A DNA stretch of 64,000 bases from an uncultured Actinomycetota bacterium (GTDB lineage Bacteria > Actinomycetota > Actinomycetes > Frankiales > Frankiaceae): contig CAVQCZ010000005.1 in NCBI GenBank assembly GCA_963711135.1, positions 163,149 to 227,148 of the forward strand, given 5' to 3'. Each line of letters starts with the position of its first letter. Positions within the stretch are counted from its first letter, which is position 1. Under the pieces are notes generated by a model, which worked only from the letters and a program-made list of their open reading frames with translations, did not search any database and had not been told where the DNA came from. Of the stretch, positions 42,943 through 61,844 are shown one piece after another. The position numbers and the translations under genes were made by a program.

Positions 42943-45281
42943 GACGGAGTGTCCGTGAGTGAGGCCGCCGTCAGGTTAGGCGGAAGCAGGGATCGCAAGC
43001 TGAGGGCGGTGCGGATCCGTTGCCGGCGGCTGAGCGAATCTGTCATGGTGCGTCGAGTCTTGTCGACCATGCTCCAGTACTCAGCAGCCGCTTCCGGTGA
43101 CAGCGCATCCGGACCGAAAATGCGCGCGTCCGCGGCGATCGCCAGCGGGCGGACATCGTGCTCACCGATCGCCGAGGCCTGCTCGCGCCGGGTCCGCCCA
43201 CTGGGAACGGCGAAGCCAAGGTCGCGCGCCAGGTCCACAATCTCGTGCCAGCCCCGTGCGATGCGCGTTTGGGCGGTGCCCCGCTGACGTCGTCGTGACC
43301 GTCGCCGCGCCTTCGTGCCGACGACCACACCGACGAAAAGCAATACGGCGAGGATCGGAGGGCCGCCCCACTGAGCAGCAGTCACAAGGAAATGCGGAAT
43401 ACGAAACCCGGCGCCGGCTTGCTTCTTGTGATTGGGGCTGGAGTGCAGCGAGCTGGTGTCGGCCGTTGCGGCGGTGTCGAGGGTGCTCGGCGGCCGCGTT
43501 GGATTCGGCGGTGGCACGATCGAGGCGGTCGCGTCAGACACCTTCTGCGGAGGCTGTTTCGTCGGCTTCTTCGACTGCGGGGGCATGAACTTCGTCTGGG
43601 GCACCGCAACCCACCTGCCGTCACCAAGGTGCATCTCGACCCAAGCGTGGACGTCACGACCTTTGATCACGCCGTTGGCCTCGGGAGTGGCTCCGAGTAC
43701 GACCCGGGTCGGCATCCCGAGATCGTTGGCCAGCAGCGCGAACGCGGCCGCGTACTGCTCGTCGTCGCCGACAATCTGCGTCGAGTTCAGAAAGGACGTG
43801 AGGCGCCCTACGCTGTGTCCGGGCAGGTACTGGCCTTCGCCCTTCCCGCCATCGCTGTAGAAACCCGCAGTGTGCAAGTGCGTTGCCACCGCCTGCACTT
43901 CAGCCCAGACGTCACCGGTCTTCCCGGCCCATTGCGCGGCGCGATTGGCGACGAAACTGGTAACCGACGACTGGAGGGCTGGTTGGCCGTACGGGCGCAA
44001 TTGCTGCGGCGCCTTGGTATCCAGCACCGTGTGCAGCGTGTACGTGTCGCCGGCCTTGAGCTGATCCGTGACCACTCCAGCGGAAGTCGCGAGGTTGTAG
44101 CGGAAGCTGGCGGCATGGCTGGTGCTGTCTGCGCCGGAGAAGCTCACGGAACGCAGGCTGCCCGCCTCCGGAACCCAGGCGTTGGCGTCAGAGATGGCCG
44201 CATACCCCGGCGCGATGGTGATTTCTACTGCCGTCGATGGGCCATTCGACTCCGCGGGTATCCGGGTGCCGACCTTCTGGAAAGAGTCTTCAGGCTCGTT
44301 GGAGCTGACCAGGCTTCCTGAGCTGGCACCCCAGACCGAGCCGTTGTAGCTGTCGAGTACGGCGAAGCGTAGGGGCTGCCCTGCGGGTAGGCCGTGCACC
44401 GTCAGAAGTTGCTGGTCGTAGAGCAGCTTGGCGTCTTTCGTGTACTTGCGGAAGCCGACCAGTGGGCTCGCGTAGGTGCTCAAGTCCAGCGGAGGCTGAA
44501 CATAAGCCCGCACCACAACCCGTTTGTGGGTCGACACTCCAGGCAGATGCGGCCCCACAAAGGCCGCGAGCGGCGCGGTTATGGCCAGCAGCGCGACAGC
44601 CGTCACGGCGCGGCTGCGCTGCCGGCTTCCGTTCTGCACCAGCGGATTGATGCGCTGAGACCGGACAGCCGCCCACCCGATCGCAACGGCAGCGAAGCCC
44701 AAACCCTGAACCCAGCGCGCGGCGGGCTGGGCCGTCCCGAGCAGGATCACGACCGATAGGAGCGCGATCGGTGCGAGCAGCGGCGTGACGGCGTTGCGCA
44801 ACCGCCGGGCCATCGTCATGCCGATGGCTCCGCAGGCGAGACCGAGCAGGTACGGCAGGACGAGCAGCGGCCCGCTCCCGTCGACCGGAGGCAACGTGGT
44901 CACCAGCTGCTTCCAGCCGTTGACACTCACCGACGCCAAATGCTTTACGGCACTCGCAGTGGGAAGCACCCCGATGGCGGTCTGGGTCCGCAGCGCGATG
45001 GCGCCTCCGAGCAAGAAGAACGTCAGAACGGTGACGACGGCAATGGCGATGATCGGCTGCCGGAGCACGTTGGCGAAATGGCCGATGAGCAGACCTAAGA
45101 CGAGTCCAGCCACGCCGACGAGAAGGTAGGACTGGCCGGTGTACGTCGTACGGAAGCCCAGCAGGGCAACGACCGACAGGACTGCCAGAAAGCCGGCGTC
45201 CTGCGCGTCGGCACGCGTGACCCGCCAGTGAATGCGACGGACCTCGCGACCGGCACCGGGCGAAAAAACAGCGCTACTCAT
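42939..45281 (-). CDS. Polytopic transglutaminase-like membrane protein (TgpA-like)
   Basis: About six N-terminal TM helices are visible. The core reads QIVGDDEQYAAAFALLANDLGMPTRVVLG...DVHAWVEMHLGDGRWVAV. A late TM segment and a basic tail follow. Start and stop overlap the neighbouring genes (GTGA at 42939-42942, ATGA at 45278-45281). Confidence 0.75.
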   Translation of the reverse strand: MSSAVFSPGAGREVRRIHWRVTRADAQDAGFLAVLSVVALLGFRTTYTGQSYLLVGVAGLVLGLLIGHFANVLRQPIIAIAVVTVLTFFLLGGAIALRTQTAIGVLPTASAVKHLASVSVNGWKQLVTTLPPVDGSGPLLVLPYLLGLACGAIGMTMARRLRNAVTPLLAPIALLSVVILLGTAQPAARWVQGLGFAAVAIGWAAVRSQRINPLVQNGSRQRSRAVTAVALLAITAPLAAFVGPHLPGVSTHKRVVVRAYVQPPLDLSTYASPLVGFRKYTKDAKLLYDQQLLTVHGLPAGQPLRFAVLDSYNGSVWGASSGSLVSSNEPEDSFQKVGTRIPAESNGPSTAVEITIAPGYAAISDANAWVPEAGSLRSVSFSGADSTSHAASFRYNLATSAGVVTDQLKAGDTYTLHTVLDTKAPQQLRPYGQPALQSSVTSFVANRAAQWAGKTGDVWAEVQAVATHLHTAGFYSDGGKGEGQYLPGHSVGRLTSFLNSTQIVGDDEQYAAAFALLANDLGMPTRVVLGATPEANGVIKGRDVHAWVEMHLGDGRWVAVPQTKFMPPQSKKPTKQPPQKVSDATASIVPPPNPTRPPSTLDTAATADTSSLHSSPNHKKQAGAGFRIPHFLVTAAQWGGPPILAVLLFVGVVVGTKARRRSRRRQRGTAQTRIARGWHEIVDLARDLGFAVPSGRTRREQASAIGEHDVRPLAIAADARIFGPDALSPEAAAEYWSMVDKTRRTMTDSLSRRQRIRTALSLRSLLPPNLTAASLTDTPS

Positions 45282-46612
45282 TGAAGACCTATTCCGCGAA
45301 GAAGGCGGGGAAGGTCAGTCAGCCCGGGTAGGGAGAGCACTGTCACGCTGTTGCTCTCCGCGATGTCGACCCGATTGCTGGGATCGACGCGGATGACGAC
45401 CTTGCGGGTCTCAGGGGCAAAACGCGAGGCGGCCACCCTCAGATCGATGAAGGCGGGCAGCGGGCCCGTCACGATGAACGCCAAACTGGTGTCAGGGGCT
45501 TTGCGCACGGCGTCGCCCGCTTGGTGCAGGAGCGGCGGCTGGCCCAAGCCGGCACGGCTGAAGGCGTCGAGTGTCAGGTGTGCCGGCTTGCGGTCCGCGA
45601 ACTGACCGCCAGTGAGGACGGTCGTCTCCATCTCATCCAAGATGGCCCGTACCGCAAGGGAAGCTCCGACTTGCAAGGCGACCTCGAACGTCTCGGGATC
45701 GTCGTAACTGCCGGCGTGCCCGTCGACCAGGACGAGCAGCTGGGACCGGCGCGTGTCGAGGAACTGGCGCACGAGAAAGGGTGCCTGCGGGTTAGCTCCC
45801 ATCGCCTTGGCGGACGAGCGCCAATGAATGAACCGCCGATCGTCCCCGGGGGCGAATTCCCGCAGCGCGTTGAACGCGAGGTCGCTCATCGACAGGTCTG
45901 TGGTGGGTTGGCCCTCGAGATCGCGCAGGAGCCCCGAGCCGAGCGATGGGACTGAGATCGTCTTGGGGTGCACGAACAGCTCCGTCATCTCCGTCCACGG
46001 AACAGCGCGGCGCAGCAACCCGAAAGGATCCCCACGAACGGTGGTTGCCGGGCCGATCGGGATCACCCCGCGGGCGTCGGTCGGCACGACAAAGAGCTCC
46101 TCGTGTGCGACGCCCGGGCGCAGGCTGGGAAGCGAAAACCGCGCCTTGGAGGTCGCGATCGGGAGCTCCAAGGCAAGCGAGAAGAGCCGCGCACGCGAAA
46201 CGTTCGTCACGCTGACTTGACCAGCCGCCGGGGCGCCGACGACGACCCGGCGCGGGTGTACCTCGACCGAAACGCGAAGCGTGGTGCGGCCGATCGTGAG
46301 GGCGATCGCCAGCACGATGACGATGAGGCAGAAGGCTGCGATGAGAGCGAGTTCGATCCAGTGCAGCCGCGAGCTGAGAATCCACAGGATGACGGCAGCG
46401 ACCAAGACGGTCCATCCGAGCGGAGTGACGACGCTCGTGACGGGCCGGGACAGCCGGACGGCCAGCCGTCCGCGCGCCCGTGTCCGCTGCAGGAACGGGG
46501 CGGCAGCACTTCGCAGCGCCGTCGCTTTCGCAACCGCTTGGCCCGCAGGGCCGCTCAACGTCTTCGGCATGTGACTCTTAGGCCGCCCGTTCCGCCGGCG
46601 GAACAACCTCAT
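45278..46612 (-). CDS. DUF58-family protein (partner of MoxR ATPases)
   Basis: Two N-terminal TM helices are present. The motif NALREFAPGDDRRFIHWRSSAKAM matches the remembered DUF58 signature (REY.PGD..R.I.WK.SAR). The start could be the ATG at 46570. Confidence 0.8.
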   Translation of the reverse strand: MRLFRRRNGRPKSHMPKTLSGPAGQAVAKATALRSAAAPFLQRTRARGRLAVRLSRPVTSVVTPLGWTVLVAAVILWILSSRLHWIELALIAAFCLIVIVLAIALTIGRTTLRVSVEVHPRRVVVGAPAAGQVSVTNVSRARLFSLALELPIATSKARFSLPSLRPGVAHEELFVVPTDARGVIPIGPATTVRGDPFGLLRRAVPWTEMTELFVHPKTISVPSLGSGLLRDLEGQPTTDLSMSDLAFNALREFAPGDDRRFIHWRSSAKAMGANPQAPFLVRQFLDTRRSQLLVLVDGHAGSYDDPETFEVALQVGASLAVRAILDEMETTVLTGGQFADRKPAHLTLDAFSRAGLGQPPLLHQAGDAVRKAPDTSLAFIVTGPLPAFIDLRVAASRFAPETRKVVIRVDPSNRVDIAESNSVTVLSLPGLTDLPRLLRGIGLQ

Positions 46613-47553
46613 CGAGGATGCGCTGGATCACCTGTTCCACGGTCACGCCGCTGAACTGCGCCTCGGCGTCAAGCAGCAGCCGGTGGCCAAGCAGCGGCCC
46701 GGCGAGCTCCTTGATGTCGTCGGGGATGACGTAAGGTCCTGCCCTCGGCCGCGGCCCAGGTCTTGGCGCAGCGCACGTACGCGAGGCAGCCGCGGACCGA
46801 CAAGCCCAGCCGAACGTCGGGACGGCGTCGCGACTCCTCGGCCAGCCGGCTGACGTAGCCGAGGATCGCAGGGTCGACGTGAACCTCGTCGGCGAGGCCG
46901 GCTCATCTGCGGCGACGACATTGGCCGTGATGATGGGCTGCACCGCGGCGGTGCGGTCGCGACGCTCGGCCACGACGAGACAGCAGCGCGACGGTCGCCT
47001 CGTGGTCGGGATAGCCGAGATTCGTCTTCATCAGGAACCGGTCGAGCTGAGCCTCCGGCAGCCGATAGGTGCCGGCCTGCTCGATGGGGTTCTGGGTGGC
47101 GATGACCATGAAAGGCCGCCGACGGCATGCGCGACGCCGTCGATGGTGACGCGGCCCTCCTCCATGACCTCGAGCAGCGCCGACTGGGTCTTCGGCGAGG
47201 CCCGGTTGATCTCGTCGGCGAGCACGATGGTGGCGAAGATGGGACCGCGGATGGAACTCGAAGTCCCGGCTGCGTCTGGTCGTAGATCGTCACGCCGGTG
47301 ACGTCCGAGGGCAGCAGATCGGGCGTGAACTGGATGCGGTTGTGCGTGCCCTGGACCGTGTTCGCGAGCGCCTTCGCGAGCTGGTCTTGCCGGTGCCCGG
47401 GTAGTCCTCGAGGAGCAGGTGACCCTCGGACAGCAGGCAGGTCAGCGCGAGCCGCACAACGTGGTGCTTGCCGAGCACCGCGACCCCGACATTGTCCGCC
47501 AAGCGGTTGAACGTCTGGGCGAACCAGGACATCTGTTCTTGTGTAGCAGTCAT
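46578..47553 (-). pseudogene. moxR: MoxR-type AAA+ ATPase gene broken by at least 6 frameshifts
   Basis: The gene starts at the ATG at 47553 with an AGGTGG RBS. Family-typical pieces lie in different frames: ...[12 protein letters not shown] | [35 protein letters not shown] | [36 protein letters not shown] | [35 protein letters not shown] | [53 protein letters not shown] | [22 protein letters not shown]. The switches are near 47380, 47272, 47245, 47113, 46978, 46900 and 46733. Confidence 0.8.
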
Positions 47554-47560
47554 ATTCCAC

Positions 47561-50500
47561 CTAACCCGTATGGCCGTAAGAATTAATTGTGTTAGACGTG
47601 GCGCCGTTGATCTTTGCCCATACATGGTAATTCTGCGATCCATACCCGAACCATCTCGAGGCCGACCCTTGACCACTGGAATTGAAGGTGATCGATTGGT
47701 GCCACCAAACGCCGTTGTCTGGAGCATCGTCGTACCAGTAGACGGTGTAGGTGGTATTCGGCGCAAACCCGGTACTACTGAGATTGATGTAATGACAGGA
47801 GGAATCGCCGCCGCAATAGGATGCCGGTGCCGACCCGCCCCAGCTGATGGAGATTTGTTGAGGCGGCGGTGGTGCCGCGCCGGTGCTGCCCGTATCGCTT
47901 TGCGACGCAGATGCGCGGCCCGGATCGGAAATGGTGGCGGTCAGGGTGTCGGAGCTGCTCCACGGGATGGTGTCCGAGACGTTCCACGAACCGCCGCCGT
48001 TCACCCCGAAGGTCTGGTGTTGACCCGCACTCGTCGAGACATCAACGGTTGCAGGCCTTCCGTTCGAGTTGGCACTAACGGTGAAGGTGACGGTCTGACC
48101 GCTCACGCTGTGCGTGATGGTGGGCTGCTGGAAAGGCCCGTACGTGGTCACGGTGGCAGAAGCCGATCCGCCGCATGCGCTACCCGCAAAGGCGTCGCTT
48201 CCGTGACTGCCGTTGCAATCCTGCAACAGGATGGTGGTTGCCTGACCGTTGGTGAGGCCGCTGATGGGTTCGGTGACTCCCGACTGGCCCGCGGTCGGCA
48301 TCGGCCACGATCCGCAACTTCCTCCACCGCTGATGGTGCAGTTGACCGTGGAACTGGCGCCATAGGACGGAGGCGCGTCGAATGTCAACGTCGCGCCGCC
48401 GTCTTGCCCGGTCGCAGTCGCCGTGAAGTTCTGCGGGGTTCCGGGAGTTGCCGTGGCTTCCATTTGCACGGGATCACTGGATGGTGAGGTATGCCCGGGA
48501 CCGGTGGCGGCGTTGGCTGCGATAACGGTGTACTGGTAGATCGTCCCGTCGTTCGGTAGGCCGTCGTCGGGGCACGAGGTTGCCGCCGTGATGCCGGTAC
48601 AAACCGTCTTGGTGCCCGAGCCGCCGGTACGCGTGACGGTGTACGAGGTTGGGGCCGGGCCGTTCGGGTCGTCGGGCGTCCACGAGACCGTAACCGCGCG
48701 GGTCGCCGCAGAGTCCGTCGATGCTACGAACGTTGGAGTCGAGGGTTTAGCGGGGGCACCGGCCGACTCACCGGGGACGGGCTGCGGTATGCCACGCCCC
48801 TGCGCGTTGATCGGCGTGACGGTGAACGTGTAGGTGTGGTCGTTATCCAGGCCGCTGATCGGTGCGCTTGTTGCCGTTCCTGCGGCTGTCGAATGACCGC
48901 CGTTGTCCCAAACGATGTCGTAGGACGTCAGAGGACTGCCCTCGTTCGTCGCGGGATTCCAGCTCAGCTCCAGTGAACCGTCCTGGGGATTGCTCGTTTT
49001 CAGTCCTGAAACGGCGCCCGGCACGGTGTCAGGCTTTGCCGTTGCCGAGGACCCGCTGGGGTCGCTCCAATCGACGAGGTTGTGCGCGCGGACGGTGAAG
49101 GTGTACGTGCTGCCGTTGTGCAATCCCGTGATCAGGCATGGGGATGCCGAGCACGTCTGCGTGCTCGAGCCGTAATTGACTTCGTACCGGTCGATCGGCG
49201 CACCGTTGTTGGCGGGCGTCGTCCAGGAGAGCTCGACCGAGCGGCTCAGCACAGTGCGGCCAACCTGCGGGGTGCCTGGCGGATCCGGCTTCCCCAGTAC
49301 GTGCAGCGTGATCTGACCGGTCACCTGCCGGCTCGCAAGCGAGGAGTTGGTGGAATCGCTGACGAGCACCGGGAACGTCATGGTCCCGTGGGCGTTCGCG
49401 GCCGGCGTGATCGTGACCGTGGATCCCTGGAAGGAGGCGGTCGCGTTGCTGCCGTTCGCCGTCACGTGCAGGACGCTGACCACCGCGTCGCGTAACGGTG
49501 ACGACACGTATCCCTTCAGATCGACTGTCGCCGTGCTGCCGGCTTTGACGCCGTCGATGGTGACCGGGGTGAATGACGGTGGTGCCGCCTCCTGCACCCT
49601 GAATTGGAGTGTCGAAGGCGTGGCGTCCGTGCCGTCTGCTTTCACCACCAGGACTGCAGTCCTGCCCGGCGTCGCGCCGCCTGCCGCCGTGACACTCAGC
49701 GTCGAGGTCCCGGATCCGCCGACGGCGAGGCCGTCTGAGCCGCCTTGCCACGAGCCGGAGAAACGAAGCTGGCTTCGCTCCTGTGCGGTTGGCGTCCAGA
49801 CGTGGCAGACCGAGGGGATATCGACCGCTACTGCAGGGCCTCCCGTTGTGACCGTCAGCGGGCTTTCGGGGCAGCGCAGCACCGGAGTCGGCGGGCCCAC
49901 CTGCACGGGAACCGTAAGGACCGCGGTCTGCCCGCTGGGGTCGGTCAATGAGTTTCCATCGGTGACTTCAAACGTGATCGCGGCCGGGCCTACATATCCG
50001 GGACGGCCGGTGAGGACGAGCTGGTCCTTACCGGAATTGCGTACCGCCAGGCCGCTTGCCGGGCTTGCCCAGATGTGGCTGGTGATCGTGAGTCGTACAG
50101 GTTTGCCGGCGGGGTCAATCACGAGATCCGCCAGGGGCACGGTCTTGGTAGCGCCCTTGTCGATGGAGATCGAAGCCCCGGGTTTGGTGTACGGGGCCCC
50201 GGAACCGACACCCGGGACGTGGATTACCGCGGCCGCCGTTGCACCGCCGGCGTCCTTGATTTCGTACGCGACGGTTTGGGGATGGTCGAGGACCGGGATC
50301 CTCACTTTCCCGTCGGTGGTCACCGTCGCCCCGGGAGCGAAGACATGGCTGACGACGAGCTGGTCGGACGGGCCGTCGGGGTCGACGGCCTTCGCCAGGA
50401 CGTCGACCGTGACGGCAGTGGCCTTGGGACCCGGCTTCGCGTCGGTATCCAGGGCCACGGGCGGGATGTCATGCTGCGCTTCACTGCGCACCGTCAGTGT

Positions 50501-53500
50501 CCCGACAGCCGGCGTGCCGAGTCCGTCAGTGACCCCGTAGAGCACGACGACGGGCTTCCCGGTGAGCTGCGGGGCAGTGACCTCAATCGGACCTTGCGGC
50601 GAGACCAGGACGGTTCCTGCCGGCAGTTGTGAGTTGCTGGTGCTCAGCGGCTGGATCTTCACGTTGTCGTCCGGTGCCACCAAGTCGTTCGACAAGACGT
50701 CGACGCTCAACCGAGTTCCAGGGCTGGCCACGATCGTGTCGTCGACCGCCACAGGCGGTTGCGGGTCGCCGGCTGGGACGACGGCGATACGGACGGTCGC
50801 CGAGCCGGTCTTGCCGTACCGGTCAGAGACCACGTAGGTGAACTGATCGGTCCCGCTGCTGGTCGGGTACGCCAGATACGTCAGCGAGTGCATGCCGATG
50901 CCGGCGACGCGACCCAGGGTCGGCGCGGAAGCGATCCCGGTAACGGTCACTGAATCGCCGTCCGGATCTACCCCGGAGGTCGTTACCGGAAGGGTGATGG
51001 TGTCACCGGCGACCACCCGGGCCTCGATATCCGCGGGCTGCGGGTTGTGGTCCGGGTTGGCCGGGGTCGGAGCCGGAGTCACGGTGACATGCAGGTGCCC
51101 GGTCGCCTGATCACCGGCGGGGTCTTGCGCCACATAGTCGACCAGCACGGTCTGCGTTGTGTTGACGCTGGAAGGCGCAACGTAGCGCACCAGGTTTCCC
51201 GTGACGTATGCGCTGCCCCACTTGGCCCCGGTAGTGCCGTCTGGACCGGTAACGACGAGCTGCCCCTGGCTCGCTCCGGTGACTCTCGTCGCTAGTGAGA
51301 TGGGATCGCCACCCGGGTCCGTGTCGTTGTCGAGCACGGGTACCGCAGCGGAATCCCCGACCCGCACAGTGGCGAAGTCGTCCTGCGGGACAGGCGTATC
51401 CGTAGCAACCGCGGGGAGCTGCCGTACCAAGACTTCACCGGTGGCGCTGCTGATGCCGTCCGTCACGGTGTAGCGCACCAGGAGTGGCAACGCGCCAAGC
51501 GATGAGGAGAGCGCCTTGATACGAAGCCAATGACCGGAAAGGACAGCGAGCTGCAACTGACCGTTGTTCGCGACTGCAGTTGCTGACTGGACGGCCAGCA
51601 CCTTGCCCGCCGGGTCATAGTCATTGGCCAAGACATCGAGGATCAAAGGCGCTTGCCCGTGCACGACAGCTGTGTCGGGCATGGCTACCGGGGGCAGGGT
51701 GGTCGTCGATGCGGGTTTGACGTTGATGCGAATCTTCCCGGTGGCGAACGGGGCATTGCCGAAGGCTGCCTGGTACGTGAGCAGGAATTCGCCCGGGTGC
51801 GACGCCGTCACCGTGACACGGCCGAGCCTCACATCGGTGTCGACCTTGAGACCTTCGGGCGCTGCCACGGGGCCGGCCAGGGCCAACTGTGCTGACGGCG
51901 AGCCCGGGTCGGATCCGGGAAGATCGTTGTCCAGCGGGTGCAGCTCGATCGGCTGGCCCACCTGGCCCTGCCCGACATCGGGTTGCGCGATGGCGGCGAC
52001 CGTCTTGGTTTCCGCCGGACCGCTGACATTGACCGTAAAGCTGTGCGGGACCGCCGGGCTGAGCCCGTCCGACACGTGATAAGTGATGGTCTGCGGGCCG
52101 CCGGCGACAGGAGCGCTGAAGAACAGCCTTCCGTCCGGGCTCGTCGTGACCGAGCCGCTCGAGGCGGTGGCGTCGGTGAGGGCTACCGGGTCGCCGTCAT
52201 AGTCACGCCAGTCAGCGAGCACGGGGACGGACAGATGACCACCTGAAGCAACGTTCCAGACAGAATCGTGGAAGCCGACGCGCAGCTTGGGCGGGTCCTC
52301 GTCGGATGGGCCGCGGGCCTGAACGGTCACATCCCCAATGACAGCAGGGCCTTTGCCGTCATCGACGGTATAGGTGAACGTGGTGTCACCGCTGCCGGGT
52401 GCCATCGAGATGACCACGCTCTGGCCATCGGGCGCGATCGCGAGGGTGTCAGCCGGATTGCTTGCGGCGCTGACTCCAATGACCGAAAGAATGTTGCCGG
52501 CCGGGTCGGAGTCGTTATCCAGCACGTGCAAGACAGTCGTGCGGCCCGGGCGTGCGCCAAGCTGAATCGGCTTGACGTTCGGCTTCTGATTCTGCGTGTT
52601 GAGGCTGATGTCGTTGTTCTTGGTTTTGTTGCTGTTGCTCTGAATCGGTGGCGGCTTGACAGCAGACCAGTCATCGACCTTCAGGTGGTTGTCCACGTCC
52701 CAGACCGCGCCGTTCGCGACATCGTTCAAGACGATGCTTTTGCGATTCAGCCGGAAGACAGGCCGGGTCAGGTTGGGATCGCCTCCGCCGAGGCGTGTCT
52801 TGACGGCGGCCGAATTCGCGCACCCTCGAGCGTAGGCTCCGGGCCGCCCCGCCCACGCGGCGTAGACGCATCCGCCGAGAACGACAGGGGCTGCGGGGGT
52901 GCCTGTGCCGTCGCCCGACAGGGTAGTGACCTTGCCGGAAGACAGGGCGACGGAAACGAGCCTTCGGTCGCTGGCGAGCACCACCGCCGTCGATTGAGGC
53001 CCGGGCTGCTGTAGCGTGCCGGCGACGAAGCTGCCTTTAAGCGAGAAGGTGGCTCCGGTAGATGTGGCAATGGAGCCGGTGTTGCTGTCGAACGCCACGA
53101 GGGTTGATCCGACCGCCGTGATGCGGATGCTCTGGAACGCTGTGGCGAGCCGGGTTCGCACCGGCTTGGCAAAACCGGCCCCTGCTGGGCTCAGGGTTAC
53201 CACAGTGCCGTTGGTGGAGGCGGCGTAGACCGTGCCGTCTTGAGCGACGGTGAGCGCCGGCTTTCCACTCGACCGGGGCAACGTGGCGATAGCCGTCGCG
53301 CTGGTGGGCGCTACTGCGCTGAGTGAAGTGACTCCGGTGTCCGTGTCCACTCGCTGGGCCCACAGCTTCCCGGTGGAGGGATCGAGGATCGCCAAGCTGC
53401 CGCCGGTGATCTGCACGTCGTCGTTTGAAGGCACGGGAATGGCTTGGTTGGTGAGCACGACGGCGCGATTCACATCGACCGGGAAAAGCTTGCCCTGCGT

Positions 53501-53833
53501 GTTGTCTCGCGCGATCACGGCTGCACCGTCTTGCGACACGTCAAGCGTGGAGGTTTCGCGCGCACCGCCGGGCGGGTTGAACGCCCCGTCGAGCGCGCCC
53601 GCCGGTTTGTTCACACGTCCGAAAAGGTCTTGAGCGTTGTTCGTGACCCAGATCCCGCCGTCGTGGAGATTCACGTGTTGAACGGGGTATCCGTTCGACG
53701 TCAGGGCGAACGCCACGAGGGTGGAAGCCCCCACTGCCAGAGCCGCAGTTGACGCAAGCGCCGTCTGATGGCGCTTCAGAAACCCCAATGCATCCCCCGG
53801 AACATCTAACCTGAAAAAAACAGGTACGGCCAA
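47561..53833 (-). CDS. Giant (2090 aa) membrane-anchored surface protein with a propeller-like N-domain, many cadherin/Ig-like domains, FN3 domains and a Trp/Tyr-rich C-terminal domain
   Basis: The N-terminal TM segment is [20 protein letters not shown]. Cadherin-like signatures recur ([61 protein letters not shown]). FN3 units are visible ([23 protein letters not shown]..., [22 protein letters not shown]...). The TTG start at 53833 is uncertain. The stop is 7 nt before the moxR start. Confidence 0.85.
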
Positions 53834-53887
53834 CTGGTGACTCGTCGTCCTTTTGGCAGCGTGTCAGTTGCCGCTCCAGTCGGCGAT

Positions 53888-53901
53888 GGGGAGAACTCCC
53901 C
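53888..53901 (-). promoter_or_regulatory. Palindrome GGGGAG-TT-CTCCCC (read on the minus strand), copy 2 of 3
   Basis: The plus strand reads GCGATGGGGAGAACTCCCCGCC. It lies about 55 nt upstream of the annotated start of the giant gene, in the 116-nt gap after the FHA-like/HTH gene. Confidence 0.5.
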
Positions 53902-53949
53902 GCCTGTAAAGAGAATTGCGAGGCGACGACCGTGCTACGCGTTCGCCAA

Positions 53950-54669
53950 TCATGGGGCCTCCGTCCGGTCGAGGAGGCTCAGATCGTCACGATGCACGAG
54001 CCGGGTAGCGAGTGCGAACTCCACCAACCTGGCGCGACGATTGACGGCCAGGCGCTCCGGTCCTCCGTGTAGCCCCCGGACCCCGACTTGAGTCAGTCGC
54101 TGGCAGACGTTGTCCAGCTTGCGGTTGAACTTGGTGATCGGCCATCCGAGACGCGCGGCTGCTTCGGCGGATGTCGGCACCGTGGATGCCCCGCGCTCGC
54201 CGCGCCTCAGGGGCTGCTCGCACAAGGCGATGACAAGGAGTCTCTGGTCCGGCGTCAAGGAAACCGGCCCGACGGTCGTGATTCCGGTGTCACTCTGCTC
54301 GGCGAGCGCAGGGGTGTACGGCGCGGCCTCGAGCTGCACCTCGAACTCGTAGGTCGTGGGACCTGCGGTGAACCAGACAATGTTTCGGCTGAAGACCAGC
54401 GGAAGTCTCGCGCCCGGGGCCAGCCAAGCCTGCATCGTGCCGTGCTCGTCGGCGATGGTGGCGGTGAGCTGGGTGCCGAGATTGCTGAGCACCCACAGCG
54501 AGTCCTGGTCGGCAAGCTGCAGGAACTTGCGATGCAGGTAGGGGTTGTCGTCCACCGTGAGGTCGCCGTCCCTACCGATGGTGAAAGGCCGCGACGGGAC
54601 GACGACGTATCTCTCACCGCAGAAATCGATCGTTGCAGCGGGCAGAGCCGCGGCGGAGACGGGCATCAT
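53950..54669 (-). CDS. Degenerate-FHA-like domain plus C-terminal HTH protein (candidate locus regulator)
   Basis: The start is ATGATG at 54669, forming an ATGA overlap with the kinase stop. The N-domain reads RPFTIGRDGDLTVDDNPYLHRKFLQL...LWVLSNLG. The C-terminal part is HTH-like (LTPDQRLLVIALCEQPLRRG...TSAEAAARLGWPITKFNRKLDNVCQRL). It is a paralog of 62555..63244. Confidence 0.65.
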   Translation of the reverse strand: MMPVSAAALPAATIDFCGERYVVVPSRPFTIGRDGDLTVDDNPYLHRKFLQLADQDSLWVLSNLGTQLTATIADEHGTMQAWLAPGARLPLVFSRNIVWFTAGPTTYEFEVQLEAAPYTPALAEQSDTGITTVGPVSLTPDQRLLVIALCEQPLRRGERGASTVPTSAEAAARLGWPITKFNRKLDNVCQRLTQVGVRGLHGGPERLAVNRRARLVEFALATRLVHRDDLSLLDRTEAP

Positions 54670-56288
54670 GGGCTGCACTTCGCGGCCGACCAATCGACAG
54701 CAGCATTGCTGCCGTCCGCACGCATCACTTTGATCTGCAGGCAGACAGGCGTCCCCGCGGGGGCGGACAGCGTCAGTGAGTTGTGTTGCGTGACACCGTG
54801 ACGAGCATTGTCGGAGGTTCTCCACCTGAAGGTGTCGCTGGCCAATGAGGCGTCGTAGGTCCAGCCGAACTGGACTGCGCCAGCGCTTGTCCGGGTGGCT
54901 GTGATCTGCGGTGTGCCAGGCGGAATCGCTTCTCCCGCAATGCCGGCGTCCTGCGGGGGCGTCGTCTGCGAGGTGCTCGCTAGCGCGTGAGCCTTGGGCT
55001 TGCTCCCGGATGACAGTGCTACTCCGACGGCGATGCTCGTCGCGATCACGACGGCAGCGGCTGCTACGACGAGGTAGCGTCGCGCGCCCCGGTGGGTTTC
55101 TCCGGCTGCCTCGGCTACTACGCCGCCCTGAGGTATTTCGGGCGACACCGGCTTGCGGATGGTTGACGGCAGCTCTCGCTTGTGTGCTGCGGCGCGGTCG
55201 ACCGATCGCGCCGCCGAGCCAGCCGAAGTCGCCTCGGCCGCCGGGGAAGGAGCTCGACCATCGGGAGCTTTCGGTGGCGGCGGTTGGACGAACTGCCGCC
55301 TCGAGCCCGGTGGGCTGGGCGGGGGAACGAGGGGTACGCGCTGCGGGGTTCGGACTGAGGTCGGCGCCTCTTCCCCGCCCCCGATTACGCGGCGAACAGC
55401 TTGCGTCTGCTCCTCTGCCAGGACCACGATGTCAGTGCGCGGAAGGCGAAGCTCCTGCTCGACCGCGAGGAGGGACCGAGCTAAGGCAATCGCGGACTCC
55501 GGCCGAGCGCTTGGATCCTTCGCCATGGCCTGCTGAAGAAGCCGCTCAAACGTGGTGGGGACTTCGGCGCGGCCGGTTGGGGGCGGCGGGGTGTCCCTGA
55601 TCCTGCGCATGAGCGCGTAGGCCTTGTTGTCCCCGCGGGGGACCTCGAACGGAGAACGCCCGACGAGCAAGTGCCACAGCGTTGCGCCGAGCGAGTAGAC
55701 GTCGGAGCGGACGCTCGCCGATGCCGTGCCGTAAAGGACCTCGGGCGGTGCCCAGGGAACTGAGACGCCGCCGTCCTCCTCTTCCGCCTCAGCGGAGGCG
55801 AGTTGAGCAGCGATACCGAAATCGGTAAGCCCAGGCGCCCCGTACTGGCTGGTGAGAATGTTCGCCGGCTTGATGTCCCGGTGCAAGATGCCCGCCCTGT
55901 GGGCGGTTTCCACCGCGCTGGCGATCTGTATGCCGATGCGGATGACCTCGGCGACAGGCAGTCCACCTTGCGCCGCCCGCACACTCAGGTTCGGGCGCGA
56001 GTAGTAGCTCATGAGCAGGAATGGACGGCCATCGTCGGTTTCGCCGGCAGAGAAGACCGGGACGATGTTGGGATGGTCGGCCAACGCGGCCATCGCGTTT
56101 GCTTCGGCTACGAATTGCCGACGAACCCCATCATCGAGATTGCCGACGCGGAGCACCTTGACGGCGACCTTGCGTCGCGGCATCTCTTGCTCGTACAGGT
56201 AAACATCGCTGTATCCCCCAGAGCCGAGTGGTTCGAGGTAGCTCAGACCAGAGATCTCCGGAATCGCTTCGGACAACGGCCGTTTCAC
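54666..56288 (-). CDS. Single-pass receptor Ser/Thr protein kinase with a small beta-rich ectodomain
   Basis: Kinase motifs are present (GSGGYSDVYL, VAVKVL, HRDIKPANIL, DFGIAA, PWAPPE). The TM segment is YLVVAAAAVVIATSIAVGVAL. The GTG start overlaps the upstream stop (GTGA). Confidence 0.85.
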   Translation of the reverse strand: MKRPLSEAIPEISGLSYLEPLGSGGYSDVYLYEQEMPRRKVAVKVLRVGNLDDGVRRQFVAEANAMAALADHPNIVPVFSAGETDDGRPFLLMSYYSRPNLSVRAAQGGLPVAEVIRIGIQIASAVETAHRAGILHRDIKPANILTSQYGAPGLTDFGIAAQLASAEAEEEDGGVSVPWAPPEVLYGTASASVRSDVYSLGATLWHLLVGRSPFEVPRGDNKAYALMRRIRDTPPPPTGRAEVPTTFERLLQQAMAKDPSARPESAIALARSLLAVEQELRLPRTDIVVLAEEQTQAVRRVIGGGEEAPTSVRTPQRVPLVPPPSPPGSRRQFVQPPPPKAPDGRAPSPAAEATSAGSAARSVDRAAAHKRELPSTIRKPVSPEIPQGGVVAEAAGETHRGARRYLVVAAAAVVIATSIAVGVALSSGSKPKAHALASTSQTTPPQDAGIAGEAIPPGTPQITATRTSAGAVQFGWTYDASLASDTFRWRTSDNARHGVTQHNSLTLSAPAGTPVCLQIKVMRADGSNAAVDWSAAKCSP

Positions 56289-57931
56289 GCTTCCACCTCG
56301 AAGGTGAAGGTGACGTCATCTGTCAACGCCACCACAGTTCCCGGCTCGATCAGCTGTGGATCGCGGGGGCGCAACTGTGTGGGTGGTTGACCGGGAAGCG
56401 TGACGACAGTGCCATTGGTCGACTCGAGATCCTCGACAAAGACCAGCCATCCGTCCAGGAGAACCTGAGCGTGTGTGCGCGAGATGTCCTTGTCGCGGCT
56501 GGGCAACTGCATCACGTGCGGCCGATCTCGTCCCTCTTCCGCGGGCGCTTGAGGGGCTCTCCCCATGAGAACGCCCTTGTCGAGTGACACGACGTCGCCG
56601 GTGCTGAACCTCAGTACACCGAGTGCGGGTCGCGGGACCCTCGTGGGTTCCTGGGTCGGCATGGTCTGTCGGCATACTCGACAATTGCCGGCGTGGGCTG
56701 GGCTCAGGTGTCCTGCCGGGCAGCGGGCAGCCAAGACGATCGGGCCCACTTCTTGCACGCCCGTGGGCGCTTGCGCTGCCAGGAGCTGAGCTCGACTGAT
56801 GGTGTTCTCGCTGAGCTCTTCGCCGATGTCTTCCGGATCGAAATTCAAGGTCGGTCGGGCGGCCGCCGGGACCGCTGGCTCGGCGACGGGGGAGGCGGCT
56901 TGCGGCGGAGCGGGAGCTGGAGATGACTGACGCTTCCAGGGCAGTTCGTCGATGAGATCGGAGCTGTCGTCGGTCTGTGGAAGCAGGGTGTCGTCAGGAA
57001 GGAGAGTCGAGTAGGAGTCCGCTCTCGGCGCCTGCGTTGGAAGCCGGGTCATCGGGTGAGGTTCAGCCTCGCCGGGCGATGTGGCAGGACCCGCTACGGG
57101 GGTCGGCTCGTCGTCGCCCCGCTCCGTCACCGGGCCTTGCGTGGCGCCGAAGAGATGGTCGTAGTCGTCGGCAAGTGCATCTTCCGACTCTTCCGCGGCC
57201 AGCGGATCGTCAGCCTGGGCGAGCGGCTCCTGCGGCGTTTCGGGTGCTGGCGGCGTTTCGGGAAGGGACGGGGTTTCGGGTGCGGGCGGCGTTTCGGGCA
57301 GGGGCGGCGTTTCGGGTGCGGGCGGTAGCGGCGACGGTGCCGCGAGATCGAAGAAGTTTCCGCCGTCGCTTCGGCTCGGCGGAGCGAAGTGGACGTCCAC
57401 TGTCTCTCGTCCGGGTTTCGAAGCGTCGCTCGGCTGAGCGGGAATGCTCAACCGTCCGGCCAGGACGACACCGCTGCGCAGCGGCAATTCGACGTCTTCC
57501 TGGTCCTGGCTCCCCTGGACAAGGGACAAGGCTCCCGCCGAAGCGGGAGCCACATGTTCGCGCCAGGTTGGGGCGTACTCCGAGGTCATCTCAAAGTTGG
57601 CACCGCCTGGCTGGGTCCAGATACCGCGCGACTGACCGCGCAGGATCACCCTGAGCACACCTTCCCGGACGCTGGCCAGGGCGAAGTCGCTGACAACCCG
57701 GAAGCCGGCCTCCAGGATGGCGCCGAGGATCTCGTCGGGGTCGGCGTCTCTTCGTATGAGTCCCCAGCAGGCGAGGACAACCTCATGATTCGCAGGAATT
57801 TCCGCCAACAGCCAGGTTCGCTCTCCGGCGAGGCAGACGAAGGGGCCGGGTACGTAGGTGATTTCAGCAAGCGGCGACTGAACCAACTCAATCGCTCCCG
57901 ATGCGGCGCAACCGCGGGGCCGTGGTTTCAT
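56285..57931 (-). CDS. FHA-domain protein with an unknown N-domain, a PETPP-repeat linker and a zinc-ribbon-like motif
   Basis: The C-terminal FHA domain reads GVLMGRAPQ...SRDKDISRTHAQVLLDGWLVFVEDLESTNGTVV. The motif CPAGHLSPAHAGNCRVC precedes it. I start the gene at the ATG at 57931; a TTG at 57886 is the alternative. The track ORF from 58072 overlaps the PP2C gene. Confidence 0.75.
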   Translation of the reverse strand: MKPRPRGCAASGAIELVQSPLAEITYVPGPFVCLAGERTWLLAEIPANHEVVLACWGLIRRDADPDEILGAILEAGFRVVSDFALASVREGVLRVILRGQSRGIWTQPGGANFEMTSEYAPTWREHVAPASAGALSLVQGSQDQEDVELPLRSGVVLAGRLSIPAQPSDASKPGRETVDVHFAPPSRSDGGNFFDLAAPSPLPPAPETPPLPETPPAPETPSLPETPPAPETPQEPLAQADDPLAAEESEDALADDYDHLFGATQGPVTERGDDEPTPVAGPATSPGEAEPHPMTRLPTQAPRADSYSTLLPDDTLLPQTDDSSDLIDELPWKRQSSPAPAPPQAASPVAEPAVPAAARPTLNFDPEDIGEELSENTISRAQLLAAQAPTGVQEVGPIVLAARCPAGHLSPAHAGNCRVCRQTMPTQEPTRVPRPALGVLRFSTGDVVSLDKGVLMGRAPQAPAEEGRDRPHVMQLPSRDKDISRTHAQVLLDGWLVFVEDLESTNGTVVTLPGQPPTQLRPRDPQLIEPGTVVALTDDVTFTFEVEA

Positions 57932-58673
57932 CGACCGGCTCTGGAGCGAGGCCGGGTGAATGGTCGACAACGATGACCGAGACGTTGTCCCGCCCACCAG
58001 CGGCGAGGGCGCGGCGAACGAGTGCCTCGGCAGCGTCGTGTGGGGTGGCTTCCGTCGCAAGCACGAAATCAATGGTCGAGTCGGGCACCTCGTTCGTCAG
58101 CCCGTCTGAACAGATGAGGAAGCGCTCCCCGTCCTCAGGCGGGAAAACCCAGAGATCCGGACTGGGCGACGGGAGACTTCCCAAGCAGCGCGTCACGACG
58201 TTCCGGCGGGGATGCACGCGGGCGTCGGCTGGGCTGAGTGCTCCAGACGCGACCATCTCTTCCACCTCGGAATGATCGACCGTCAACTGTTGCAATGCGC
58301 CATGTGCGTAGCGGTAAACGCGTGAGTCTCCGATGTTGAAAACGAGCCAGTGAGCACCACCAGACAGCTGGACCACGGCCAGGCCGGCGACTGTCGTCCC
58401 CATCCCGATTCGGCTGGACTCCGTCGCCGCGTTAGCGAGAATGGTGTCATTCGCGAGCGACAGGGCGCCCATGATCTGCTCCGACGTAAGCGATTCGACA
58501 TCGGCCAGCCGGCCCAGCACCTCGACCGCGATCGAGCTCGCAACGTCGCCGGCCGCGTGACCGCCCATCCCGTCAGCCACCGCGCACAGTGTCGACGAAG
58601 TCAGCACGGCGTCTTCGTTGACCTCTCTCAGAACCCCGACGTTGGTCACCGCGGACGCCAGGACCGTCAACAT
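57888..58673 (-). CDS. PP2C-family (PPM) Ser/Thr phosphatase
   Basis: The motifs REVNEDA, ADGMGGHAAGDVAS, ICSDGLTN and GGRDNVSVIVVD are present. Confidence 0.9.
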   Translation of the reverse strand: MLTVLASAVTNVGVLREVNEDAVLTSSTLCAVADGMGGHAAGDVASSIAVEVLGRLADVESLTSEQIMGALSLANDTILANAATESSRIGMGTTVAGLAVVQLSGGAHWLVFNIGDSRVYRYAHGALQQLTVDHSEVEEMVASGALSPADARVHPRRNVVTRCLGSLPSPSPDLWVFPPEDGERFLICSDGLTNEVPDSTIDFVLATEATPHDAAEALVRRALAAGGRDNVSVIVVDHSPGLAPEPVDETTAPRLRRIGSD

Positions 58674-60030: not shown

Positions 60031-60244
60031 GACTACCTACCCTTTTTTCTGCTAATGGGCGGTCATAAAACAGTTGCCGACCGCATGACACTGTCTCGCA
60101 TCGGGTGGTGCTTTGTGGCCCGTTGTCGAGATTTTCTGCGTGATCTTGGGCGGCTGGAGTCGGGAAAGGCGCTACCCCCTGCTCGGCGAATCCGACCTGC
60201 CCCAGCTCAGCGCGAGGCTAAATCGTTGCCGTTCAGTTGAGAAT

Positions 60245-60258: not shown

Positions 60259-60398
60259 AAGCTGAATCGCTCGATCAGCGCTGCTTCTTGGGCTGCTGCG
60301 CCCTAGCATTGGCTCCGCCGCCTCTCGGGATGGCGGATCTCGGCGACGTTCAGCTACCGATGCTGCGCGCCGACTTGGACTCGATGGGAGGACGGCAA

Positions 60399-61271
60399 AT
60401 GGTTGCCATCGAAGGTCTCGACGTCGAGTCGGTCCAGGCGCATGGCGCTGCGTTGAAGGCGCAGGCGCAGCACCTGGAGGGAATCGTGCAGGCCATTTCC
60501 GCGCTGGTAAGTCAAGCCGAAGGCGTCTGGCAGGGGCAGGACGCTCGTGACTTTGCGGGCTGGTGGCATCAGCAGCATCGGCCGGCGCTGCTGGCGGCGG
60601 CCCAGTCCGTTGCCGGGCTCGGCACCTCCGCCATCAACAACGCGGCTGAGCAAGCACGGGCAAGCTCGGCAGCCGGGGGTTCTGGTGCGGCGATCTCGCA
60701 CACCGCTGCGGTCAGCGCGGGTGTCGGCGCCGCGGCAGTCGGGGCCGCGGCGCGGCTGGCGGCAGGCTCGTCGTCGCCGTCGACCTCTCCCGGTGGTTCG
60801 AGCGCGGGCGCGACGACCGGGACGCTCGCTCCGCCATCGGGTGGCCTACAGGGCTACCGGGCTGGGGCTGGCTTGCATCCCAGTACCGCCGACTGGGCCC
60901 AGGGAGCACCCGCGAATGGGCAGGCGGATCAGTGGGGAAAGGCGGCCAACAATTGCACATCGTGGGTTGCCTATCGCCGAGCTCAGCTTGGCCTGTCCAT
61001 CCCAGTTGGCAACGGTGGTGCCATGGGCCATGACCCAGGACTCCCTCCGACCCTGGGGGCGGTCGTTTCCTATGGCGCCGGAACGACCAGCGATCCGGGG
61101 CACGTCATGGTGGTCGAGCAAGTGATGAGCCCTGACCGTTTTCGGGTAAGTGAAATGAACTGGGACGCAGCCGGAGGATTCCGGGACAACCAGGTCTGGG
61201 ACCGGCTTCCCAACGGGATCTGGCAGCGTGAATCAGGCGGCCTGGCCGAGGCGCTGAAGTTCACCCCCTGA
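60399..61271 (+). CDS. WXG100-domain plus CHAP-amidase fusion (T7SS-type polymorphic cell-wall toxin candidate)
   Basis: I start it at the ATG at 60399, which has a GGGAGGA RBS. The WXG domain reads LDVESVQAHGAALKAQAQHLEGIVQAISALVSQAEGVWQGQDARDF...GLGTSAINNAAEQA. An Ala/Ser/Gly linker follows. The CHAP contexts are NNCTSWVAYRR and PGHVMVVEQV. Confidence 0.8.
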   Translation: MVAIEGLDVESVQAHGAALKAQAQHLEGIVQAISALVSQAEGVWQGQDARDFAGWWHQQHRPALLAAAQSVAGLGTSAINNAAEQARASSAAGGSGAAISHTAAVSAGVGAAAVGAAARLAAGSSSPSTSPGGSSAGATTGTLAPPSGGLQGYRAGAGLHPSTADWAQGAPANGQADQWGKAANNCTSWVAYRRAQLGLSIPVGNGGAMGHDPGLPPTLGAVVSYGAGTTSDPGHVMVVEQVMSPDRFRVSEMNWDAAGGFRDNQVWDRLPNGIWQRESGGLAEALKFTP

Positions 61272-61421
61272 CGACTCGATCCTGTCCAGCCATCTCGGTA
61301 GTCATGCTCTGCGAGGCACGATGCACCTGTCAGTTCACTCTCAATGCCCAACCCCGGGGGAAGACATGCAGGGATTCCCCCAGGGGACTTTGTCGCGCGG
61401 CGTAGCCACCGAGGGGGAACG

Positions 61422-61844
61422 ATGCAGGGCCTGAAGGCTCCCCGCACCCAACGATTCTCACGAGCTTTCATAGCGCTGGCCGCCGGTGGTCTCGTCGTGT
61501 CTTGCTCCTCCGGACCTGCCTCCGGGGCGGCGGCCAAGTCTCCGTCCTTCAGCCAATCAAGCGTCGGTCCCTCGTCGCCTCGTTCGACGCCGACTTTGAG
61601 ATTGGGTCGGGGTCCCGCCGCTCCCGCGGGGTTTCGGTACGCCATTTCTCTGACGGGATTCGCCGCAGATGCCGTGGTGACCATCACTTGCAACGACAGT
61701 CGCGACCCTCGGGGGTTCTACACCTTCACGTTGCATACAAACGCCGATGGAGATGCTTCAACGGCCAGCTACTGCTTTTCCGGCGATGGCCCCGACCACT
61801 GGCTGACGGCTAATGGTGTGCAGTCGAATCACGTTACGTGGTAA
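61422..61844 (+). CDS. Small lipoprotein, candidate immunity protein for the CHAP effector
   Basis: The ATG at 61422 follows a GAGGGGGAAC RBS. The N-terminus MQGLKAPRTQRFSRAFIALAAGGLVVSC carries a lipobox. The gene lies immediately downstream of the effector gene. Confidence 0.55.
   Translation: MQGLKAPRTQRFSRAFIALAAGGLVVSCSSGPASGAAAKSPSFSQSSVGPSSPRSTPTLRLGRGPAAPAGFRYAISLTGFAADAVVTITCNDSRDPRGFYTFTLHTNADGDASTASYCFSGDGPDHWLTANGVQSNHVTW

Follow-up and report, generated by a model that had tools for sequence, protein, structure and literature searches.

We analysed a 64,000-nt stretch of DNA from an uncultured bacterium of the Frankiaceae (contig CAVQCZ010000005.1), called the window below, and in particular one of its genes, which joins a WXG100-like N-terminal domain to a C-terminal CHAP domain (WXG-CHAP, protein P0001). 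This gene lies in an island which also encodes a large EccC/EssC-like ATPase, a stand-alone WXG100 protein, a second WXG fusion (WXG-X) with an overlapping partner open reading frame (ORF), an Esr-type sensing module and, next after WXG-CHAP, a small predicted lipoprotein (Table 1). From its domains and from gene order in other Actinomycetota, WXG-CHAP is probably a peptidoglycan hydrolase whose export depends on EccC, and the CHAP domain is one cargo of a polymorphic WXG-fused family and not a universal part of the system.

Table 1 Features of the WXG-CHAP island, with positions in the window.
Feature	Position	Strand	Basis or remark
WXG-CHAP gene (P0001), 290 aa	60399..61271	+	Translation; Pfam; full-length homologs at 35-54% identity
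Ribosome-binding site GGGAGGA	60386..60392	+	Read from sequence; ATG at 60399 is 6 nt on
WXG100-like helical hairpin, residues 1-93, turn W44-Q-G46	60399..60677	+	AlphaFold2, Foldseek, PDB profile, alignment
Low-complexity Ala/Ser/Gly/Pro linker, residues ~94-144	60678..60830	+	AlphaFold2: pLDDT 29-44, no secondary structure
CHAP (papain-fold) domain, residues ~145-290	60831..61268	+	Pfam PF05257, alignment, AlphaFold2, PDB profile, Foldseek
CHAP catalytic codons Cys186 and His235; also Glu252 and Asn254	60954..60956 (Cys186); 61101..61103 (His235)	+	
Imperfect hairpin, 11-nt arms, 12-nt loop, no T-tail	61352..61385	+	Repeat search of the 150-nt WXG-CHAP/lipoprotein gap
Small predicted lipoprotein, 140 aa	61422..61844 (alternative ATG 61344)	+	Lipobox Cys28 codon 61503..61505
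WXG-X fusion, 253 aa	36629..37390	+	N-domain paralog; no Pfam family for C-domain
Partner ORF overlapping WXG-X, 236 aa	37342..38052	+	No Pfam family
Stand-alone WXG100 (EsxA-like), 90 aa	38137..38409	-	PF06013 genome scan; paralog of WXG-CHAP N-domain
FtsK/SpoIIIE ATPase, 1493 aa: Ubl, FHA, two transmembrane segments, three P-loop domains; EccC/EssC-like, EsrG-type FHA fusion	38461..42942	-	Pfam, NCBIfam
Esr-type sensing module	42939..58673	-	Pfam; tblastn against homologous loci

The first-pass annotation had described a WXG (WQG) domain joined through an Ala/Ser/Gly linker to a CHAP domain, and this architecture was recovered in full, with the motifs VW44QG46, NNC186TSWV and GH235VMVV all found in the translation. 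A longer form beginning at the in-frame TTG at 60237 was not borne out by the homolog N-termini or by the ribosome-binding site; the start was placed at 60399 because GGGAGGA lies 6 nt upstream of it and all homologs begin at the equivalent Met. The AlphaFold2 model, built with eight homologs as input (mean predicted local distance difference test score, pLDDT, 74.7), contains helices at residues 9-43 and 47-91 on either side of the WXG turn, disorder at ~93-140 and a confident alpha/beta domain at 145-290 (pLDDT 76-93). The linker differs in both sequence and length between homologs. The C-terminal domain was matched by the Pfam CHAP model over residues 179-254 (35.9 bits, cut-off 26), and Foldseek matched it to the CHAP endolysin domains Ly7917, LysK CHAPK and LysGH15; the NCBIfam models for staphylococcal amidase and ScrM hydrolase matched it weakly. 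Together with this above-threshold score, the domain has the catalytic Cys and His and the polar third residue which are expected of a CHAP domain, and because C186, H235, E252 and N254 are invariant across the nine-homolog alignment, the active site looks intact.

By fold and motif the N-terminal domain is a WXG100 hairpin, although it scores below the curated family thresholds (PF06013: 22.1 bits over residues 8-60, E 1.9e-4, cut-off 27.3; TIGR03930: 16.3 bits, cut-off 44.85). PF06013 was matched at E ≤ 1e-3 by 52 of 68 relatives, the best at 1.3e-10, and Foldseek aligned the hairpin with EsxA/EsxB crystal structures at a target TM-score of 0.75-0.88. A profile of the WXG-CHAP family searched against PDB sequences recovered Geobacillus EsxA (3zbh) at E 3.6e-7, and the same profile also recovered Peptidase C51, PcsB and staphylococcal CHAP amidases. 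Residues W44, G46, W56, N81, A82, Q85 and S89 are invariant among the nine homologs, and the W and G of the motif are invariant in the 68-sequence alignment as well. The N-terminus contains no hydrophobic Sec-like segment; the first residues are acidic or polar, and residues 1-8 (MVAIEGLD) lead into helix 1.

Two further WXG regions were found in the window by the PF06013 genome scan, making the N-domain one of three paralogs. The N-domain of WXG-CHAP is 67% identical to that of WXG-X and 54% identical to the stand-alone WXG100 (over P0001 residues 1-90), which stops exactly at the fusion-linker boundary of its two paralogs and whose gene lies directly downstream of the ATPase gene. We propose that this protein is the heterodimer partner of WXG-CHAP, that residues 1-93 of the latter serve for targeting and dimerisation, and that the 1493-aa ATPase is the export motor. 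The ATPase was matched by Pfam FtsK_SpoIIIE (2.8e-55) and FHA (8.9e-14), and by the NCBIfam models for EssC, EccCa and EccCb at 494.6, 352.7 and 308.3 bits, all under the equivalog cut-offs. An identity as a conjugation-type (TraB-like) ATPase was considered and dropped, given three P-loop domains with EccC/EssC-type profile matches.

We compared WXG-CHAP with public sequences at several depths. A word-indexed search returned 11 relatives, and an exhaustive search of 1.84 billion cluster representatives returned 729 at E ≤ 1e-3, of which 212 also passed E ≤ 1e-10. One retrieval of genomic loci, with an alignment of eight sequences as a single pattern, gave 12 loci and samples genome-wide prevalence poorly. 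Among loci with enough flanking sequence, all from independent genomes and metagenomes, the order EccC, 90-aa WXG100, WXG-CHAP was found in ten (L009, L011, L013, L016, L017, L018, L020, L021, L022 and L058); L056 has WXG100 followed by WXG-CHAP, and L019 has EccC and WXG-CHAP with no WXG100 match in between. WXG-CHAP is therefore genetically linked to a multi-P-loop FtsK/SpoIIIE ATPase, in carriers as scattered as Mycolicibacterium llatzerense, Mycolicibacter acidiphilus, Frigoribacterium, Schumannella, Iamiaceae, Ilumatobacteraceae and Acidimicrobiales. Layouts akin to that of the present genome were seen in L011 (PP2C, WXG100, WXG-CHAP) and in L060.

The same N-domain carries a range of C-terminal domains. 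It was present in 142 of the 155 proteins examined, and 81 of these 142 carry CHAP (62 by phmmer and 19 more by a Pfam scan of 68 of the others), a share of 57% which is inflated because the query behind the top-150 ranking was the full-length protein including its CHAP domain. The other C-termini identified in the Pfam scan were NlpC/P60 (n = 4), Amidase_6 (n = 2), papain-fold Gln_amidase (n = 1) and Abhydrolase_8 (n = 1), and many had no family. A word search with the N-domain only (residues 1-95) returned three proteins and offers no unbiased cargo census. Several loci contain arrays of two to four WXG-N genes. The family therefore has the make-up of a polymorphic one, with a conserved trafficking domain and variable C-termini.

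As the loci had first been retrieved with WXG-CHAP itself, we also sampled in reverse: 400 genomes sampled from the phylum supplied 20 FHA-EccC loci, whose flanks were scanned with hidden Markov models of the family. WXG-N ORFs were found near eccC in half of these loci, and a CHAP domain near EccC in none of the 20, including the two closest EccC relatives (G385 and G027). In G385 (locus L062), whose EccC is 46-47% identical to ours, WXG100 is followed by a different cargo gene, a homolog of the 253-aa WXG-X, and then by a homolog of the partner ORF of WXG-X. The idea of WXG-CHAP as a conserved core component was rejected on these two results, and the CHAP domain is not an obligatory machine part, as none of the sampled FHA-EccC loci carries it.

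The minus-strand genes upstream of the ATPase gene encode a transglutaminase, a DUF58 protein, MoxR (frameshifted), a 2090-aa Ig/cadherin/FN3 giant, a 291-aa ORF, a Ser/Thr kinase, an FHA protein and PP2C; Pfam matches were to Transglut_core, DUF58, AAA_3, Big_9/Cadherin/fn3, a Pkinase-type Ser/Thr protein kinase and FHA, with PP2C assigned by homology. Together with the FHA-EccC fusion, this matches the Esr-Esx gene set. The "epibiont sensing and response" (Esr) pathway was described by Wang et al. in a September 2026 preprint as comprising EsrA (an Ig-like surface filament), MoxR, vWA, the transglutaminase EsrD, the kinase EsrE, the phosphatase EsrF and the FHA output EsrG (PMC13622651). According to that work 40% of 3502 Esr pathways adjoin esx genes, fusions of EsrG with EccC are numerous, distribution is patchy beyond Actinomycetales and Propionibacteriales, and in Schaalia the Esr-linked Esx secretes AesA/AesB, limiting Saccharibacteria epibionts (PMC13622651). 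The present cluster has in common with those described the Ig giant, MoxR, vWA/DUF58, transglutaminase, kinase, phosphatase and FHA genes, the adjoining esx genes and the patchy spread. It differs in cargo: AesB combines an FXG helical domain with a disordered Gly-rich C-terminus of unknown activity, whereas here a canonical WXG domain is followed by a recognisable enzyme, and neither a CHAP-domain effector nor a peptidoglycan-hydrolase effector turned up in a word search of the preprint (PMC13622651).

A search of 12 genomes of the same genus recovered no WXG-CHAP and no orthologous FHA-EccC, and WXG-CHAP was not found in 12 further genomes of the same family, so the island looks accessory.

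A gene with an apparent lipobox does follow WXG-CHAP, as the first-pass annotation had claimed: its ATG, preceded by GAGGGGGA, lies 150 nt downstream of WXG-CHAP, and the product begins MQGLKAPRTQRFSRAFIALAAGGLVVSC28SS, in which LVVSC was read as a lipobox by eye. Under the rule [LVI][ASTVI][GAS]C, KAPRTQRFSR would be the positively charged n-region and AFIALAAGGL the hydrophobic h-region, followed by VVSC28, which is likewise a fit by eye. The codon-position GC of this gene is atypical (0.56/0.64/0.67). Its C-terminus is a predicted beta domain of ~70-85 aa with two Cys; no Pfam or NCBIfam family matched it, ESM Atlas and Foldseek were uninformative, and the fold matches obtained were weak and generic (Ig-like or neocarzinostatin-like), from an AlphaFold2 run with two input sequences in which one of five models was confident. 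In a collection of 5.8 billion clusters a single homolog was found, P0156, a metagenomic protein of 158 aa on a 951-bp contig without context. P0156 contains the two-Cys beta domain twice in tandem at 57-64% identity, and the domain appears to be a small, uncharacterised, repeatable extracellular module.

The same annotation had put the lipoprotein forward as a candidate immunity protein, and here comparison with other genomes gave no support. The lipoprotein was not found in 40 related genomes, nor in the 12 other WXG-CHAP loci by tblastn and an all-against-all comparison of downstream ORFs. The gene after WXG-CHAP is another WXG-X in L009, L018, L019 and L022, an FHA or zinc-ribbon gene in L013 and L017, a convergent transposase-like helix-turn-helix gene in L058, a convergent cytoplasmic ORF in L057 and an unrelated ORF elsewhere. 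Even the closest WXG-CHAP homologs (47-54% identity) have different genes downstream, or none, and what comes after the gene for P0007, the closest relative by N-domain, is a methyltransferase gene in convergent orientation. No downstream family recurred in the all-against-all comparison except WXG-X paralogs and FHA proteins. Between WXG-CHAP and the lipoprotein gene, the promoter and terminator scan gave nothing above shuffled controls, with no consensus terminator in the gap. A co-conserved cognate immunity gene downstream, as expected of polymorphic toxin-immunity systems, was thus not found, and the lipoprotein gene is better read as an unrelated orphan in the island than as a conserved partner of WXG-CHAP. 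What stands of the proposed delivered amidase and immunity pair is its first half, namely the tie of WXG-CHAP to a type VII secretion system (T7SS)/Esx-type ATPase within a family of polymorphic cargo; the immunity half is unsupported, and position alone is a poor ground for annotating an adjoining lipoprotein as immunity.

The same comparison recovered the 253-aa WXG-X and its overlapping 236-aa partner as a co-conserved pair in L009 and L062, and therefore detects a true cargo-partner pair where one is present. This pair is a better candidate for cargo and partner, the latter a putative immunity protein or chaperone, than CHAP and the lipoprotein.

WXG/LXG-fused cargo and T7SS-associated CHAP hydrolases are each already known. 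The polymorphic LXG/WXG effectors of the T7SS (TelA-C of Streptococcus intermedius; EsaD and TspA of S. aureus; PMC3482391) likewise have a helical trafficking N-domain and a variable enzymatic C-domain, lie near an EccC/EssC ATPase and small WXG100-like helpers, and combine related N-domains with differing cargoes. They differ from the present case in having an LXG domain of ~200 aa instead of a minimal WXG100 hairpin of ~90 aa, while here the cargo is CHAP, no immunity gene is conserved, the host belongs to the Actinomycetota and EccC is fused to FHA. CHAP is unmentioned in the catalogue of Zhang et al. 2012, where Tox-NlpC/P60 is listed solely for type VI secretion systems (T6SS), PVC and TcdB/TcaC routes (PMC3482391).

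Other known systems resemble WXG-CHAP in part. PcsB of Streptococcus pneumoniae, which was among both the PDB profile and the Foldseek matches, also ends in a CHAP domain, which a flexible linker joins to a long helical hairpin or coiled coil, but superposition of the whole chains was poor (root-mean-square deviation 26-27 Å). PcsB is Sec-exported and FtsEX-activated for cell division, and its coiled coil is not a WXG100 domain. The T6SS Tae/Tai pairs (Tse1/Tsi1), in which a papain-fold peptidoglycan amidase travels on a specialised secretion system, are the model behind the immunity idea. As far as is known, every Tae effector gene adjoins a gene for periplasmic immunity that is conserved along with it; none was found here, and the secretion system and the envelope also differ. 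In S. aureus, the CHAP hydrolase EssH was reportedly exported by Sec through a signal peptide, which WXG-CHAP lacks, having a WXG100 hairpin in its place, and homology between the two is at the CHAP superfamily level only. EssH and WXG-CHAP have in common a tie to a type VII locus (T7SSb for EssH), a non-catalytic N-domain, a C-terminal CHAP domain and no immunity protein, but EssH is needed for EsaA assembly, whereas EsaA and EssB were not found in the present genome (PMC13059805). The literature searched contained no direct fusion of a minimal WXG100 hairpin to CHAP that recurs beside FHA-EccC in clusters of the Esr type.

We propose that the N-terminal ~93 residues of WXG-CHAP form a WXG100 hairpin which would most likely pair with the 90-aa WXG100, as EsxA pairs with EsxB, and that the heterodimer would present WXG-CHAP to the Ubl-FHA-EccC ATPase of the cluster, with the disordered linker letting the CHAP domain trail behind during export. 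Outside the membrane, the Cys-His-Glu/Asn site would be expected to act as a peptidoglycan amidase or endopeptidase, cutting stem peptides or the MurNAc-L-Ala amide bond. WXG-CHAP would then be a cargo variant among the WXG-fused proteins of Esr-linked Esx clusters of Actinomycetota, its likeliest role would be that of an envelope-targeting effector against neighbouring or attached bacteria, and the producer's own safety would not hinge on a dedicated immunity protein from the next gene. As a whole, an exported peptidoglycan hydrolase which takes an Esx/T7SS-type route instead of a Sec signal is the reading towards which we lean. Within it, antagonism is somewhat more likely than remodelling of the producer's own wall, in view of the variable cargo slot, the envelope-targeting repertoire, the sporadic horizontal distribution and the defensive role shown for one Esr-linked Esx system. 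A more specific version is speculative and we hold it to be doubtful: WXG-CHAP may be the lytic effector of an Esr-sensed Esx system, in which EsrA senses an epibiont or competitor, FHA-gated EccC exports the heterodimer and CHAP digests the peptidoglycan of the intruder at the contact site, the producer being spared by its own wall chemistry and not by an immunity protein.

Several observations should be set against export as an antagonistic effector. The CHAP share among relatives is inflated, as noted above, and a canonical YxxxD/E signal is not visible in WXG-CHAP, whose gene lies 17 kb from eccC and does not adjoin it; the cluster is rearranged here, with WXG100 beside eccC and WXG-CHAP at the kinase/PP2C end. 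In the 93.6%-complete genome we did not find EccB, EccD/YukD, EssB or a convincing EsaA (PF05108, PF08817 and TIGR03926, no match; TIGR03920, 16.2 bits; TIGR03929, 28.7 bits against a cut-off of 122), so that neither canonical membrane core, EccB, EccD, EccE and MycP for T7SSa or EsaA, EssA and EssB for T7SSb, was recovered. Membership in the T7SS is consequently carried by EccC and WXG100 only, since no other apparatus component was found in the genome, and it is from sequence that we infer EccC-dependent secretion of the family. In this assembly a 1-nt frameshift near 38700 throws the final ~75 codons of eccC out of frame: homologs align in the called frame over residues 1-~1435, whereas the match to their last 40-60 residues lies in a different frame (QPDQIDGSVFRTDFPR...FPAGRGFLVRRG, positions 38560-38760). 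A MoxR homolog aligns over overlapping parts in two frames (46581-47553, minus strand), and the abnormal codon-position GC of the called moxR ORF (0.70/0.72/0.61) fits multiple frameshifts, with the flanking genes intact. These frameshifts may be assembly indels or may reflect decay of the island in this strain. Finally, the missing conserved immunity gene would be unusual for an antibacterial peptidoglycan hydrolase of a contact-dependent system and fits self-remodelling about as well.

Self-remodelling in the manner of EssH, in which WXG-CHAP would be exported first with WXG100 and open the producer's own peptidoglycan for the apparatus or for WXG-X cargoes, would need no immunity protein, in keeping with the varied genes which follow WXG-CHAP. 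We consider it possible, though rather unlikely. The T7SSb of S. aureus needs EssH for wall-spanning assembly and secretion (PMC13059805), WXG-CHAP is the first cargo after WXG100 in each CHAP-bearing locus with context, and the alternative C-domains are often peptidoglycan hydrolases too (NlpC/P60, Amidase_6). An essential part would, however, be expected more often than in none of the 20 sampled FHA-EccC loci, EssH has a Sec signal and no WXG fusion, and there is a problem of ordering, as the enzyme would be exported by the machine which it helps to assemble.

We regard as improbable the immunity model, under which an antibacterial amidase delivered by the T7SS would be countered by the downstream lipoprotein at the outer face of the producer's membrane. 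The lipoprotein gene is genuine, and the ~70-aa beta domain which it encodes is conserved; it lies close behind WXG-CHAP on the same strand and inside the island, with YbjN-like, 229-aa ORF and kinase genes next and a homolog of that ORF in L009, and an extracytoplasmic site would suit immunity to a wall hydrolase, as in the Tae/Tai pairs. Against this stand its solitary homolog without genomic context, its absence from the relatives and WXG-CHAP loci searched, the methyltransferase gene in its place beside P0007, the generic Ig-like fold matches and the hairpin in the intergenic gap. It is similarly unlikely that no wall enzyme is exported at all, WXG-CHAP being either a cytoplasmic amidase with a small-molecule or protein substrate or a leftover of an island in decay, no longer capable of secretion. 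Some cytoplasmic enzymes, the glutathionylspermidine and trypanothione amidases, likewise contain CHAP domains, and the Foldseek matches include 2vps and 2vpm; the frameshifts in eccC and moxR, the channel components not found in the genome and the island not found in 12 congeners could all be read in the same way. The top sequence and structure matches are nevertheless peptidoglycan hydrolases, WXG-CHAP is intact with all catalytic residues and similar to its homologs over its full length, the linkage with EccC and WXG100 is consistent across phylogenetically scattered loci, and the frameshifts may be assembly errors.

Few type VII/Esx effectors of Actinomycetota have a known biochemical activity, and AesB, the sole characterised Esr-Esx effector, has no recognisable enzymatic domain. 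With its hairpin fused directly to an intact CHAP hydrolase, WXG-CHAP is a cargo whose activity could be assayed. It would be a case of a minimal WXG100 domain carrying a folded enzyme of ~150 aa, and it sets the roles of weapon and of EssH-like door-opener for a T7SS-linked wall hydrolase in direct contrast. Were the lytic-effector version true, WXG-CHAP would be the first enzymatically defined Esx effector of the Esr defence pathway and the first peptidoglycan-hydrolase cargo on a T7SS signal domain.

Further secretion-related genes were seen outside the cluster. A second, shorter EccC-like ATPase of 1216 aa (G000:C4:608853-610700) is common to congeners, and a canonical, high-scoring WXG100 gene (57.8 bits; G000:C2:35834-36085) lies on a different contig from it. 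Within the window, a gene divergent from WXG-CHAP (58840-60030, minus strand) encodes a polytopic membrane protein of 396 aa which begins with a zinc ribbon and is possibly an unrecognised membrane component; in L013, L017 and L060 comparable places are taken by zinc-ribbon or DUF7937/DUF4190 membrane proteins, with no detectable sequence similarity to it.

The window also contains the two further CHAP genes reported in the first-pass annotation, at 6434..8893 (44.4 bits) and 28192..29862 (24.7 bits by Pfam, 29.7 bits in the genome scan). The shuffling of the domain between export routes which had been read from them was not supported: the CHAP domain of the former is 33% identical to that of WXG-CHAP over 64 aa and that of the latter gave no significant BLAST alignment with it, so they are superfamily relatives and not recent paralogs, and recent domain shuffling is not shown.

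Public sequencing data were informative for one short region. A 162-nt contig which is 100% identical to 38243..38404, inside the WXG100 gene, was present in two small soil metatranscriptome runs (X1 and X2), possibly a single data set filed twice, a hint that the organism comes from soil and that its WXG100 gene is expressed. It also suggests an abundant esxA-like transcript. Other public reads for the WXG100/EccC stretch were divergent DNA fragments, and neither these nor the contig settled the eccC frameshift; no sequencing runs were listed for the WXG-CHAP gene.

Downstream of the lipoprotein gene (window 62058-63244) are a YbjN-family gene (Pfam 1e-7), the 229-aa ORF and a second Ser/Thr kinase gene. 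The YbjN fold resembles that of type III secretion system chaperones. In L009 the WXG array ends with a homolog of the 229-aa ORF (34% identity); together with the second kinase gene, this indicates that the island reaches beyond the lipoprotein gene.

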